From IMG/VR virus record IMGVR_UViG_2974549561_000001, positions 39,446 through 103,445 of that record: DNA of 64,000 bases, one strand, 5' to 3'. Made by a program: the position numbers. This stretch comes from a virus (Duplodnaviria; Heunggongvirae; Uroviricota; Caudoviricetes). Below are positions 38,501 to 47,500 of the stretch, piece by piece. The first letter of the stretch is position 1. Every line of letters starts with the position of its first letter.

Positions 38501-41500
38501 CGTTATATCGTGCGCCACTATACATTGGACAGAAAAGAACTTCCTAATGAATGGAACATGAGTAATTTCTACAACGGTGAATATGGCTTAAAATCCGCTA
38601 ATAATTTACGGTCATAATCTATACAGGCATGTATAACAACAACGAGCCTATTAGCTGTCAACAACGTTATTTCCTCAAATAAGAAAAAGCAGAAAACAAA
38701 TTGTTTAAGGTCACAAATTGTGGCCTTGATGGAGGAGGGAGGCTTATTGGCTATGGCTAAAAATCAAATTAGACACTTCATGTTGCTGTAGCTCATCAAG
38801 ATCCGAGGCCACAAAACCTTTTCCGAAAAACTTCACAAGTAACTCACTAGCCGCATCATTGTCACCTATTACACGAAAGTCATACGGCAACGTCGCAAGT
38901 TGACGATGTAATCCTGCTGAGAAAGTCGAATCTAACAGCACCCAGAATTCCCACCGCAGGATAATACTCGCCTCTTAATACTGTATATATGTTGTTACGA
39001 TATGTTTTTCTGTCTCTAAAAAAAGATGTTAATAGAATGCTAACCATTGAAGGGGATAGAAATATACAATTCCAACAAACGTTATTTTTAACAATTTTTT
39101 TCTTTGCGTTGACTTTCCCGGACACCTTGTCTGACCGAAGGTGCGCGAAAGCCACTTTTTCCTTCCTGAGTTATCCACAAAGTTATGCACTTGCAAGAGG
39201 GCCATTTTCTACATATTGTGGTGGCTAACAGATGAAATGAATGTAGATTAATTGAAGATAAGGAGAAAATTTGAGATGCAATCATGACGTTAATAGATAG
39301 GGTCTGCATTACAGACCCCACCCGCATCAAGGAATTAGCCGTTCCCTGATGTTTTTCCGAAAACATGTGCCGTAAGCTCACGTTAACGACTTTCATTCAC
39401 CGAATCCAACTATATAGGGGTTGGGTTTCTACGTCAACGTGAGCAAGTGCACCTTTACATTTGACAAGGAACCACCTGAATGAACGCTTTTTTTCAGTTC
39501 CTGAGTGCATTTTTAGATGCGCCTATTATTAGCCAGATTCTGGCTATTATCCTCATCATCGTTTTGATTTTGCTTTTAAGGTCAGTAAAAAATGGAATTA
39601 TGCACTGGCTTACTTAATGTTTCAGTGAAACATTAAAATCTCCTTGATGTGGAAACAATCATTTTCTGTATGTGCTGGTGGGCACCTGTAGTTCAGCTTT
39701 CGTTGGCATTTAACTTCGTCTTTGCTTTCTCCACCAGCAACTTCCAGATGCCTATTTCATTAGCAGCCGCCTTGATGGCGGCATAAAAAGCATCTTGCTG
39801 ATCGTAACGCTGGATCTGTTTTTTCAGTTTTGCCTCCACCAATTTAATTTCATTACGTGCTTTCTGAAGCCGCATCACCGCCCGGTTACGTCTGTTCTTG
39901 TATAGCGTGTTAATCTCTGACAATTGCTTTAATTTACCAGCCTGACTGCGGATTATCGCCTCCCTGGCTTCTGCCGTGCGTCTCATCTGATCTCTTAAGA
40001 GTTCACCGTTTTCGATAATTCTTTCAAGGTGTTTGATGTGATCTGCAACTCTCATACTTCACCCTCGCTTGTATCACCAGCGTCCACCAACGACAATAAA
40101 GCCATGGCCATCTTATGAACCAACAGTGCATCAATAATGCCAAGCGTATGCCCCGGCTTAATGTTTAATGCTGCCTCAAGATGACACCTTTCCAGACCGC
40201 TTTTCTCGGCTTGTTTATGATGATATGGCGTAATAACGTCGCCCAAAACACGGCTAATTCTTTCTCGTAATTGCTGGGTGCCAGCACACTTGATCGCTGT
40301 ATCGTGGAGACGGTTAACCAGTTCGCGATAAACATGCGGCTTAATGCGGATACGTTCACCGGTGACGCCCTTTCCTGGCGCTGGCACCGAACTATCCGGA
40401 ATATCCGGATAGTTGCCAGCCTCGTAAGCTACCCGCAGCCAGTGCATGAATGTTTCAGTGGACACACAACCACAGTCCACATCGATTTTCCCGCGTTGCT
40501 GTTCCAGCCATTGCCCAAAATCCAACCTGTAAGTCTTACTTTCAAGTTCATCACCATTGAACTCGACTTTCTGCGACGCTATGAGAGCTGATTCGTATTG
40601 TTCGCGAGTGACAACTGACTGGTATTCATCGCTATCAAGGTCACCAATTGGAAGCTCAATATCACAACAAAAATTGCGCCCAAAGAAAGTGTCTTTTTTG
40701 TGGTCTGAGCCAAAAGCAAAAGTCGCGCATGGTGCCATTAAATTGACACTGGGTAGGTAACAATAACTCATTCCATCAGGCCACCCGCCGCACTTAGGCA
40801 GCTCCTTCACTAACAAGTCGATAAACTTCATTTTTTTATCATCTTTGCAAGCCGCCAAAACCATTTGGGCAAGTGCCAATACTTCATCTGCCGTATATCC
40901 AGCACCGTGACCATACATTTCGATACGGGAAATAATCTCTGATATACGCTCTTCAGTGATTCTGGTCATTTCTTTTTGCGCCATTTCTTTTCACATTCCT
41001 TAGTCCATTTTTCAATGTTCATTTTGGCAATATCAGTCATTCCATCACCTAAGAAATACTTTCTCCGGTACGTCTTGCACTTAAACCACACTACAACAGC
41101 CACCAGCCAGAAAATAAAAGGCCATACAGCAATACCAACGACAGCCGCGATAAAGCCCAATAGCCATAAATGAAGCTCTCCAACTTCTGTTTCCGGCAAT
41201 ATTCTTAAAGAATTAAACAGCAGGCTGAACGAATGGTCGTATGCATTGGCAGTATAAGACATGCAATCCATATAATTAAAGTCATAGCCTGCGGCTGCCG
41301 CCCATAATGGGCGGTCAAGAAAATGTTTTAGTGTCATCATATAAATTTAAGGTTCAGACCAGTTATCTTCAATAGCAATGCTTAATCTTTGTAGCCATTC
41401 TGCTAATTTCAGCATTGCTTCTCTTTCGCTTAAACCACGAGGAAAATCATCAAGCGAAATTGTTGGCTTGAAGCCACCGTAATTATCCATTTCAACAGTC

Positions 41501-44500: not shown

Positions 44501-47500
44501 ATGGCAATGGAATGAGGCGTTATTACCCACAGTTTCACGCAAGCACATCATGTAAAAGCGGTTATTCATTGGTTGCCTCCGCTTCCCACGTTTTCAGACT
44601 TTCACCACAGAACGGGCAAAATGAAACTCGAATAGGCGATTTAGAAAATTCACCAGACCGCAGCATGATCAGGTCTTGTGAATGAATTAATTCATGGTTA
44701 TAGATTTTGTATTTCAGCAGACCTTTTCGCGTCGTGTATTCAGCGTCATGCTCCAGGGATTGTGCCAACGCCGCGCACGGTTCTATCTTGTTGCCATTAA
44801 TTTGGCATTTTGACTCACTCATTGGTTGCCCCCTGAATACGCTCAAACTCTATTACCCACACCCAAGGATTAGCGTTCCAACTATCTTCGCCATAAATTG
44901 ATTTCCATAGGCTACGGAAACCTGGGTAATGCTTATCGCCAATGAGGGTCGATTCTGTTGGTGCGCCCTCAGCCCTTGCATCGCATTCGCTGATATCGTT
45001 CAACCGCTCAACGCGCACGTTGGTAATTTCCAGAAGAATGCGCGATGCCCAGCGCGGCATGTGAATTGATGGCGTCCACTTTTCTGATACTGGTTTATTA
45101 CAAACCTCGACCGGAACCCGGTGCGTTTGTTCTGTCCAGGAGTTACGCACGCTTGCGCGATAAACCAGCGTTGCGACGTCCGTCGCTTTGCCATGTACCC
45201 GGTAGGTTTCGCGAACCCAAATACGATCGCCCGGTTGACCATATGGACAATGCTTGGCAAGCAACTCTGCGGCCACTGCCCGTCCATAGAATTTTTCTTC
45301 AACAATCCTGCGAGTCTGTGTTTTATTCCCGCCAAGAATTGCCCGGACCATCTCATCGTTAAAAATCATGCCGCGCTCTTTCACTTCGCCTTTCATGCAT
45401 CCCCCTTACCCATGTGCGACGATGCCGCCAAAAGTGATAGAGAACAGCCAGAAATAGATCGCGGCCATAATGATTTTGAATGCCGTGTTCATATTTTCAG
45501 CTCCTGTGATTGATTGGATACATGCCGCGCCTTGCGGCATGTTTTTATTTTCACTTCCTCTGTTTTAAAAATCAATATTTATTAGAGCAATTATTGTTGA
45601 TGGAGAAGCGCGTTTTCATACTCCCTGACCATTAACGTAAGCACGCCGTGCCTCCTGAAAACACGCGCCACTTCAATCTTATCTTCCAGCGCGAACGCGA
45701 TTTTACTTAGACCAATTTTCTTAAGGAGATCAATCTTTGCTGGGCCGTCATTTCTGTCATCGGTGGCAGGACGCATAGATAGCAAAGGCTCTGCCCCGTT
45801 TGTTACGTACTTCCGCAGCCAGGCTCGTGTTTTATCCCTTGCGATCTCACAGCGCCCGGTTACAAACCAGACCGTGTAAACGTTAAATAACTGGCGCACC
45901 ATATCAATAACTGGAGTGATGGGAGTATCGGTGTCACAGGCGAGATTAAACTCGTTCCAGTCCTTTGTTAATGCACCTTTACCTGGTGGCGGAAGCAAAT
46001 GCAGTCTGTCTTCAGTTGCCTCTGATATTGTTCCATCAATATCAACTATGACGATATACGGACGTTCCTGGTGTGCGTGTTTATTGAAAATACTCAAATG
46101 CCCTCCTCATTGGACGAAAAAAATGCTGGTGGGCGCACTCCACCAGCATTAAAAGTGACACTGTAACTGTCAGCGAACGTAAATAGTGCCGCCGTTCTCT
46201 TTTTCCCATGCATCGCTACGTGCATAGCAAACATCGAGAAGTCTTCTTGCCGCTGTTTCCTCTAAACCCAATTCGACAACCAACTGCTCATGACGGCGGG
46301 TAACCACATCAAACAGGGTATGCAGCCCTTTAGCTGCCAGATCATCAATAAATTCCGGTTCGAACGGCAGCTCTGCATCTGCCAACATAACCTCTTGCGC
46401 CCACTCGACACGGCGGACCAGTTCCGGGCGGCGGCTTTCCATCTCTTTACAGATCAATTCATGGAAGAACTCTACCCAACCTTCCGGCTGGAACTCGCGG
46501 AAAATGGCCAGCGGCTGGAAGTTTGGCATCAACCATTCGTTGATTCGGATATCAATGGCATAGCCCATGTCGCAGCAGAACTGATAAGCAAAGTCCAGCT
46601 TAGAAACGATATAAGGACGCTCGTTATTGAACTCTTTAGGCGATGAGATCCCATAAGCCAGGAGGCGCGGGAAGAAGGAGATTTGCCCTAACGTCGGATG
46701 AAGTTTGCTTGCAGGGAAACGGCGCTCAGTAATGCCATACATTTCCTTCTTGAGCGTCGCAAATTTGGCATTCTCATTAACCAGCGCGGTAACCTCTGCT
46801 TTTTTATTAGCAAATGCCACGCGCGCTTCGCTTGCATCTTTAATAGTTTTTTTGAGCTGTTGGTTAAGGTCGGCGACCTGCTTACGCAGTTCCTGTCGCT
46901 CGCTTTTAGCTTTGTTATAGCGTTTCTCAAGGTTAAAAGGATCAAGTTTCATGATCTCTTTATATTGAGATTTTAGCGTTGAAATCTGTGAGTTCCGCAG
47001 TTCAACCATCGCGGTCATTTCATTGAGTTTTGTTTCCAGCTCAATGCTTATACGTTCGGCATTATCAGCACGCTGGTTGGCGTCATGCGTCGCATCGTCG
47101 ATCGCGTCCTGTTGCTGGCGTTTCAAATGTTCAATTTGCAGCTGAAGCTCTTCAATTTCTTTACCCTTCAGACCGAGATCCAACTGCATATTTTCAGCTG
47201 CATCTACCAGGGAGTTATGGCTATCAGCTTCTGCGTTATAAACATCAATAAGCTGTGCGTGAAGCATCTCCGCTGACTGAACCGCATTATCAAAAAAACG
47301 TGCTGTGAGGTCATCACAACTAACGCGGCGTTGCGCGGCCCGGATGTTCTGGATAATGGCCGGGATACCGGCATTCAGGACATCAGGGATAGATACATTT
47401 TCGATTGATTGGTTTTGTGCTGAAGTGCTCATTTCAAAGTTCCGTATTAGCTTGTGCTTCGGTCATTTTTCCTAAGTATGAAGGAGGAAGGACTACGCAA

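Follow-up and report, generated by a model that had tools for sequence, protein, structure and literature searches.

In P1-like phage-plasmids, the interval between the genes pap and lxr has been described as a place of frequent variation. Venturini et al. (2019, PMC6906374) listed it under the name RD-5 as a hot spot 'between pap and lxr', with '8 orfs (pmgU-pap) <40% P1/P7' and substitution by a type I restriction-modification (R-M) system, and 'region 8 (pmgT...humD)' is among eight regions of high variability in Wang et al. (2022, PMC9603915), where pmgT is reported to be 'replaced' in phage JL22 by a cluster including Ea22. The Ea22 proteins of lambda and of Shiga toxin (Stx) phages are produced early, form coiled-coil tetramers whose C-terminal domains can be swapped, and favour lysogeny; DUF551 is one of their portable C-terminal domains (PMC10834534, PMC7093339). 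An exchange of genes among phages and phage-plasmids has been described as a general phenomenon (PMC10879196). Here, a stretch of 64,000 nucleotides (nt) from the caudoviral record IMGVR_UViG_2974549561_000001 (positions 39,446 to 103,445), referred to as the window, was analysed with respect to this locus. At 39693-45396 the window carries 11 tightly packed open reading frames (ORFs) on the minus strand, which were numbered g01 to g11 from the promoter side. Very probably, this block is the common long form of a C1-repressed early operon of accessory genes, situated between pap and upf/lxr/humD of P1/P7-like phage-plasmids. It corresponds to pmgT-pmgV of P1 and to the hea operon of P7, and the comparisons described below indicate that it is P1 which deviates from the common state.

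An eleven-gene block behind a C1 operator

An earlier sequence-only reading of the window had counted at least 11 minus-strand ORFs in the block. The ORF calls agree with this number, and the RefSeq annotation of the S. Indiana plasmid NZ_CP031191.1 (103 kb) lists the same 11 genes. The surrounding 7.5 kb (39000-46500) are 100% identical in four Salmonella P1/P7-like plasmids, NZ_CP031191.1 among them, and the flanks of the block are 96-99% identical to P1 and P7. The block had been placed between a phosphatase gene and humD. The former, pap (HAD_PNKP, 45591-46097), indeed adjoins it, but humD (Peptidase_S24, 37112-37501) is located about 2.2 kb beyond its end.

The genes are packed closely. 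If the 178-nt gap between g07 and g08 is taken to contain a gene, a candidate ORF of 40 codons, nine of the ten junctions from g01 to g11 overlap or are at most 6 nt apart, the remaining one being a gap of 76 nt. Terminator-like sites in the block showed no excess over the shuffled expectation. A C1 repressor operator, also detected in the sequence-only reading, is present at the head of the block (Table 1). It is the positional equivalent of the annotated OpmgT/Op88 of P1 and Op(hea) of P7, and its flank is 97.7% identical to P1. When up to three mismatches were allowed, 12 C1-operator-like sites were found in the window (5624, 28306, 30344, 30427, 30891, 35165, 45575, 47667, 47716, 51340, 60909, and 60920) versus 0.32 expected by chance; none is located within the block. 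Judged by sequence, these dispersed sites are the C1 regulon typical of P1. The positions of the two promoters in Table 1 were transferred from the annotation of the P1 record via the blastn alignment and are predictions only, as is a promoter-like site (9/12) at 45619-45590 from a promoter scan.

Because there is a single operator, promoters are predicted by homology to P1, and the genes are tightly packed, one C1-controlled transcript appears likely. Lifting of C1 repression upon infection or induction would then be expected to yield a polycistronic RNA covering 11-13 tightly packed genes. The two candidate ORFs of 28 and 40 amino acids may belong to this operon.

The block could also be regarded as passenger DNA in decay, consisting of pseudogenes left by recombination. 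Some related arrays contain unannotated gaps and truncated DUF551 or Ead fragments, and P1 tolerates the loss of most of the array. All 11 ORFs in the window, however, are intact and tightly coupled, full-length matches to PHROG profiles were obtained for g02-g11, the proteins scanned, and the full-length distal and proximal genes share 92-100% identity among numerous plasmids in different species, which makes decay highly improbable. No transposase ORF or annotation was detected in 38600-46100, so that insertion sequences (ISs) or transposons do not flank the block. Internal repeats were short and weak and gave no evidence for flanking repeats, and the GC profile dropped only mildly, to 0.39-0.40, at 38.2-39.6 kb and at 41-42 kb, which is not diagnostic.

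Phage P1 as an apparent deletion derivative

Comparison with P1 (NC_005856) by blastn yielded two matching segments. Positions 45305-47500 correspond to the 5' end of pmgT, OpmgT, pap, and pmgS (97.7% identity), and 39072-40427 to upfO, upfN, upfM, pmgV, and pmgU (94.6%). Between them are about 4.9 kb in the window versus about 0.6 kb at the same place in P1. From pap to humD, P1 annotates eight coding sequences (CDS) and not about six, as had been stated in the sequence-only reading, and only pmgT, pmgU, and pmgV match the block. The alignment bore out that P1 has a different gene complement. The term 'expanded', which had been applied to the block, reverses the polarity, as the following observations show.

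When P1 was aligned with four long arrays, its collinearity was interrupted only by a single clean gap (4,736-7,476 bp). The endpoints of this gap are identical in all four comparisons and fall within two ORFs which elsewhere are always intact. P1 PmgU equals residues 200-310 of g10 (94.6% identity) and starts with GTG. P1 PmgT is approximately identical to the intact 242-amino acid gene-1 protein of phage 813R1 up to '...SANPWV' and then continues in g10 DNA out of frame. The motif WVIEF, which is lost from PmgT by this switch, is nearly invariant among 38 diverse family members and represents the last beta-strand of the gene-1 fold predicted by AlphaFold2 (AF2). Junctions were counted in PLSDB with 120-nt queries spanning them, scoring records that covered at least 80% of the query. 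The P1 deletion junction was detected in only five records, the junction from the leader to gene 1, characteristic of array-type elements, in 324, both being counts of records and not of independent lineages.

These comparisons indicate that P1 is a rare deletion derivative which lost about 5-7 kb inside the operon, and that the deletion produced pmgT and pmgU. Since long arrays are common and P1 bears these marks of deletion, the block is not an expansion; it is the reference phage that appears contracted. The reverse scenario, in which lambdoid accessory genes were inserted into a short, P1-like ancestral operon and thereby expanded it in the window, could refer to the short form of P1 and five PLSDB plasmids and to central genes that are near-identical to lambdoid genes, so that DNA flowed between phage types. 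It is nevertheless quite unlikely. PmgT lacks the conserved terminal strand of its fold (ASCH, see below) and runs on in a non-coding frame of g10, PmgU is a C-terminal fragment with a GTG start, and an insertion would need to have reconstituted the two frames precisely.

The evidence from P1 also bears on gene names. In the P1 record pmgT, pmgU, and pmgV carry names for virion morphogenesis, in P7 the neighbouring genes are called sht and hdm, and the operon adjoins pmgR and pmgS. A morphogenetic role of the block genes is nonetheless hardly credible: two of the three P1 genes, pmgT and pmgU, are deletion products, the content of the locus ranges from about three to 20 genes or is replaced along with neighbouring genes by an R-M system, and the fold predicted for g01 is ASCH and not structural. 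Moreover, those passages of a CRISPR interference (CRISPRi) study that deal with pmgT, pmgU, and pmgV describe all three as non-essential, both by CRISPRi and in a mutant study cited there (PMC10695390). The genes are therefore inferred to be non-essential early accessory genes and not virion morphogenesis genes. A role in modulating the host, its defences, or the decision between lysis and lysogeny is probable.

Comparison with P7

P7 (NC_050152) is much closer to the window than P1. According to blastn, 43892-47500 are 99.3% and 38872-40542 are 99.8% identical, and differences are confined to the centre (40542-43892). In the P7 record the operator is called Op(hea) and the operon hea operon, which consists of Op(hea), upf86.8, upf87.4, upf87.6, upf88.3, upf89.0, upf89.5, and upf90.8 (AF503408 / NC_050152). 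The operator, g01-g03 (Upf86.8, Upf87.4, and Upf87.6), the beginning of the Ead gene, g10 in its C-terminal part, and g11 (Upf90.8) are common to both. P7 is devoid of g06-g09 and of the DUF551 domain, but has Upf89.0 and the hybrid Upf89.5. In this protein of 432 amino acids an N-terminus like that of g05 (66% identity to its 214 N-terminal residues), without DUF551, is joined to residues 148-310 of g10 (98.8%). Both junctions relative to P7 fall inside shared modules, the one at 43892 in the N-terminal part of g04 and the one at 40542 in g10, which also contains the P1 deletion endpoint (40427).

In P7, IS903 is inserted at 38872-38880, and these 9 bp flank the element on both sides. The window has an empty 9-bp target site there and thus resembles a relative of P7 before the insertion. 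The P1 gene hot, encoding a homologue of the theta subunit, is absent from the neighbouring segment (38243-39072). In its place an ORF of 118 codons is located on the plus strand (38261-38617), the counterpart of P7 Upf93.6, with an lxr-like ORF upstream (37676-38260); neither has a Pfam match.

Variation among P1-like plasmids

The block had been suspected in the sequence-only reading to be a variable cargo region, and this was borne out by PLSDB, where 1277 records match the 7.5-kb query, but only 13 of them with a coverage of 80% or more. In nine array-type loci of P1-like plasmids and in phage 813R1, about 7-20 CDS are listed from pap to the distal array end. Together with the flanks, the matched intervals are mostly 8-10.6 kb long, two sampled loci being shorter. 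A presence matrix, obtained by tblastn over 12 loci, revealed three zones. The distal block g07-g11 is conserved with 92-100% identity in nine to ten of the 12 loci. The proximal genes g01-g03 are found in about half of the loci, the alternative being a second type of gene 1 encoding 241-246 amino acids. The centre with Ead/Ea22, DUF551, and eaa-type genes is hypervariable.

In many P1-like plasmids only 45402-46500 are conserved. Two of them, NZ_AP027786.1 and NZ_AP028823.1, contain hsdM-hsdS-hsdR on the opposite strand in place of the interval from humD to pmgT, with the junction at 45402. The hsd genes, located at 4926-10925 of locus L009 (NZ_AP027786.1) and 4941-10925 of locus L010 (NZ_AP028823.1), are convergent with the C1-controlled leader. 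By subtraction, it was estimated that about one third of P1-like elements may be of this hsd type. In the P1 record, the flanks of P1's own locus are noted to be identical to the sequences around the EcoDXXI hsd locus.

The junction at 45402 defines the start of the exchangeable cargo, which follows directly after a leader cassette of operator, predicted promoters, hairpin, and a 28-codon ORF (Table 1). This cassette is conserved backbone and is kept where hsdMSR takes the place of the cargo. The last backbone element is the 28-codon ORF, situated after the C1 operator and before the first cargo gene. Its conservation amounts to 100% in the 12 array-type loci and to 93-96% in hsd-type loci, and it is not annotated in P1, P7, or RefSeq. 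A codon-position test showed no synonymous excess, with too few substitutions.

Genes for DNA methyltransferases and for proteins of the PAPS-reductase family are often involved in counter-restriction in phages. Both kinds were seen in other arrays at this locus (locus L015, 6756-7628; phage JL22; NZ_CP017632.1). The block might accordingly be an island for defence or counter-defence, whose early genes neutralise host immunity and whose slot alternates with type I R-M. Besides these arrays, several findings are compatible with this idea: an early, repressor-controlled expression, as deduced from the operator; hsdMSR in the neighbouring interval of many records; a preprint reporting anti-defence genes in most P1/D6 elements; and the predicted fold of g01, since PUA-like ASCH folds bind or process modified nucleotides, the top structural match being YqfB. 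However, no PADLOC match was obtained for ten of the 11 proteins, those scanned, the only characterised relatives, Ea22 of lambda and Stx phages, act on the choice between lysis and lysogeny and not on defence, and the hsd genes replace humD-pmgT on the opposite strand, but do not exchange with the cassettes one for one. An island of this kind is possible, but only tentatively proposed.

A still bolder proposal, which we consider doubtful, is that the slot after the leader serves as a dedicated exchange site for conflict genes shared by P1-like phage-plasmids, lambdoid phages, and IncF plasmids, with the leader itself as a functional module. If so, the slot would hold either early cassettes for host takeover or counter-defence (ASCH, Ead/Ea22, DUF551, and others) or a type I R-M system in the neighbouring interval. 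In hsd-type elements the induced leader promoter might then, speculatively, read antisense into hsdR.

Some results weigh against interpreting the block as a common, C1-repressed accessory operon. The hsdR-to-leader junction was detected in 538 PLSDB records, but this number includes conjugative IncF plasmids with only an 84-bp remnant of the leader (45402-45485), which is found there between hsdR and IS1; as with the other junctions, such numbers do not represent independent lineages. A weak terminator-like hairpin (42074-42090) is located within the 76-nt gap, and both the single transcript and C1 control of all genes are deduced from sequence features. P7 Upf89.5 may be either a second deletion fusion or a legitimate modular variant. 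For the block proteins, Ead_Ea22 and DUF551 were the only usable matches obtained with Pfam, NCBIfam, and PADLOC, and a pro-lysogenic role of Ea22 is described only for lambda and Stx phages, whose C-terminal domains differ (PMC10834534).

Relationship to lambdoid phages

Several block genes had been suspected to be of lambdoid type in a P1 backbone, and this holds at the DNA level. Approximately 42117-44580, from g06 to g03, show 93-97% nucleotide identity to Stx-converting phages, HK620, IME10, POCJ13, and others. In HK620 the corresponding genes are hkaE-G (2065-3510), located between int and an abc2-like gene in the exo-xis region, and in POCJ13 the run is DUF551, a hypothetical gene, Ead, and DUF4752. 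The relatives of g01 and g02 in lambdoid and P22-like phages are 77-84% identical in nucleotide sequence, g02 having 84% identity in lambdoid Rac-SA53 and mEp460. Some of these relatives are labelled EaE, ASCH, or RNA-binding, EaE being used for g01 relatives in P22-like phages. For the distal block g07-g11, no close counterpart outside P1-like elements was found at the DNA level.

The near-identity of these sequences shows exchange between P1-type phage-plasmids and lambdoid phages. A possible site was detected at the g04/g05 boundary. The 3' end of the Ead gene (about 28 nt, '...GIRIKGE*') and the next ATG are 100% identical over 28-41 nt among arrays with differing neighbours, and the same sequence is 100% identical in POCJ13 and HK620. 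In the window it occupies 43236-43276, a candidate recombination linker. A route that fits this pattern would be homologous recombination, both at gene boundaries with short conserved sequences and within N-terminal modules that are shared. Checks of annotation, ORFs, and repeats revealed no involvement of IS elements or transposases.

The first gene, g01

The product of g01 is homologous to the 232 N-terminal amino acids of P1 PmgT (47% identity). The g01 family is large, comprising 44,405 representative clusters at E <= 0.001, and the aligned members share an invariant N-terminal motif, GxKTxTRR. An AF2 model based on an alignment of 38 sequences reached a predicted local distance difference test score (pLDDT) of 86.9 and a predicted template-modelling score (pTM) of 0.82. 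Foldseek matched this model to YqfB as the top hit and to 3s9x, 1t62, 2z0t, and ZmASCH (probability 0.92-1.0). Among the top 15 PDB matches, 12 are ASCH or DUF984 structures and three are PH0355 and PF0455 chains. The target-normalised TM-score to ASCH structures was up to 0.75, and the sequence identity to the solved structures is 9-15%. An early AF2 model from 13 near-identical sequences (pLDDT 52.6), whose Foldseek matches were noise, was discarded in favour of the 38-sequence model.

At the sequence level, the g01 protein did not match Pfam ASCH (PF04266) even at E <= 10, and searches of PDB chains with the g01 sequence and two g01 profiles returned nothing meaningful. Yet seven of 38 homologues (44-63% identity) match Pfam ASCH weakly, the best with E = 2.4e-4. 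According to the model, g01 adopts a PUA-like ASCH beta-barrel fold. The predicted fold resembles that of the E. coli N4-acetylcytidine amidohydrolase YqfB and of Zymomonas ZmASCH, but g01 is nearly twice as long as these ASCH proteins and contains insertions. In view of the ASCH fold and the weak matches of homologues, the labels 'DNA primase' (RefSeq, P7) and 'putative morphogenetic function' (P1) are unsupported for the g01 protein. In the P7 record NC_050152 both 'DNA primase' for Upf86.8 (5929-6510) and 'minor tail protein' for Upf89.0 (3848-4363) look like misannotations.

The genes g02 to g11

The proteins of the block were searched against Pfam (E <= 10), NCBIfam, PHROGs, and PADLOC. 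All ten (g02-g11) gave PHROG matches, exclusively to families of unknown function (Table 1). With PADLOC no family was accepted at E <= 0.01 for the ten proteins scanned (g01 and g03-g11). A hit of g11 to DndD was rejected, since its 18.7 bits are far from the cutoff of 245.85 bits and the match is explained by coiled-coil composition. The Ead/Ea22-like and DUF551-like proteins noticed in the sequence-only reading were both recovered by Pfam, and the two Cys-rich proteins and the membrane protein mentioned there were identified as g02, g03, and g09.

The proteins differ in their conservation among the 12 loci. While g04 shows only 34-68% identity across loci, g03 is 98-100% identical in seven and g06 94-100% in five of them. 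In nine loci each, g07 (95-100%) and g09 (92-100%) are conserved. The protein encoded by g11 is 96.7% identical to P1 PmgV. For g03 there was no Pfam match and no meaningful match in a sequence search of PDB chains; the latter search was equally without meaningful result for g10. The 40-codon ORF is open in nine of the 12 loci with 85-100% identity; its few substitutions comprise eight nonsynonymous and three synonymous changes.

Table 1. Positions of the operator, leader elements, and genes of the block in the window
Feature	Position	Strand	Remarks
C1 repressor operator	45575..45591	-	ATTGCTCTAATAAATAT; 16/17 consensus matches (one mismatch); overlaps pap stop codon
Predicted sigma-70 promoters	45547..45590	-	Counterparts of P1pmgT and P2pmgT; the operator overlaps them
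Inverted repeat in leader	45520..45542	.	10-bp stem; terminator-like as read on + strand
Candidate leader ORF, 28 aa (amino acids)	45406..45492	-	MNTAFKIIMAAIYFWLFSITFGGIVAHG; hydrophobic; AGGAG 8 nt upstream
g01, 193 aa	44815..45396	-	P7 Upf86.8, 99% identical
g02, 86 aa	44562..44822	-	P7 Upf87.4; CxxC protein; phrog_4030; 4 Cys (4.7%), CPFC
g03, 214 aa	43925..44569	-	P7 Upf87.6; Cys-rich; phrog_2457, E = 1.9e-119; 10 Cys (4.7%), CPHC
g04	43248..43937	-	Ead/Ea22 family, variable C-terminal domain; Pfam Ead_Ea22, E = 3e-38, above gathering score
g05, 286 aa	42386..43246	-	C-terminal Pfam DUF551, residues 218-283, E = 1.6e-20, above gathering score
g06, 86 aa	42129..42389	-	phrog_2814; close relatives are 'eaa protein' in RefSeq
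g07, 77 aa	41819..42052	-	Acidic; starts conserved distal block; phrog_3876
Candidate ORF, 40 aa	41648..41770	-	Hydrophobic; fills most of the g07-g08 gap; annotated in phage 813R1
g08, 97 aa	41347..41640	-	phrog_1258; 96-100% identical in 9/12 loci
g09, 124 aa	40966..41340	-	Membrane protein; phrog_2638; Kyte-Doolittle 19-residue maximum 2.60
g10, 310 aa	40052..40984	-	Variable N-terminal part, conserved C-terminal domain; phrog_21459 on C-terminal part
g11, 120 aa	39693..40055	-	Predicted coiled-coil; PmgV / P7 Upf90.8 homologue; last block gene; phrog_4403

Comparison with known systems

Since RD-5 and region 8 are published and the exact sequence is already deposited in RefSeq, the finding is a known one; the block is ordinary for P1-like elements, and the current understanding of these elements remains unchanged. 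In the literature searched, which excluded the P1 genome paper, neither an account of P1 pmgT/pmgU as a deletion scar nor an ASCH fold for g01 was found. The scar is one modest new point, and no priority is claimed for it or for the fold. For annotation, P1 is a poor template at this locus, because pmgT and pmgU arose by a deletion. From there, 'putative morphogenetic function' has been carried over as a label to homologues with the appearance of accessory genes, and the same applies to 'DNA primase' for Upf86.8 in RefSeq. The locus documents recent flow of DNA between P1-type phage-plasmids and lambdoid phages and offers a compact set of uncharacterised early genes, presumably under repressor control, in which effects on lysogeny or host defence could be sought by screening.

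With RD-5 and region 8 the block shares the position in the P1/P7 backbone, the flanks (pap and pmgS at one end; upf, lxr, and humD at the opposite end), and a varying content including Ea22-type genes and substitution by type I R-M, and a predicted operator of the Op88/OpmgT type is found at its head. The papers describing these regions take P1 as the reference state, in which genes are 'replaced' or 'modified', whereas P1 is considered a deletion derivative here; otherwise, nothing essential differs.

The lambdoid exo-xis ('ea') region, represented by lambda ea22, P22 ead/eaA/eaE, HK620 hkaE-G, and Stx phages, is the second system to which the block may be compared. Families of the Ead_Ea22, DUF551, eaa, and EaE/ASCH-like types are present in both, as are gene-boundary sequences, mosaic modular proteins, and, as a prediction for the block, dispensability and an early repressor-controlled transcription. 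The differences concern the element and its regulation. The exo-xis region belongs to integrating phages and is governed by pL and N antitermination, whereas the block resides in a P1-type myovirus maintained as a plasmid prophage, with a C1 operator of the P1 type.

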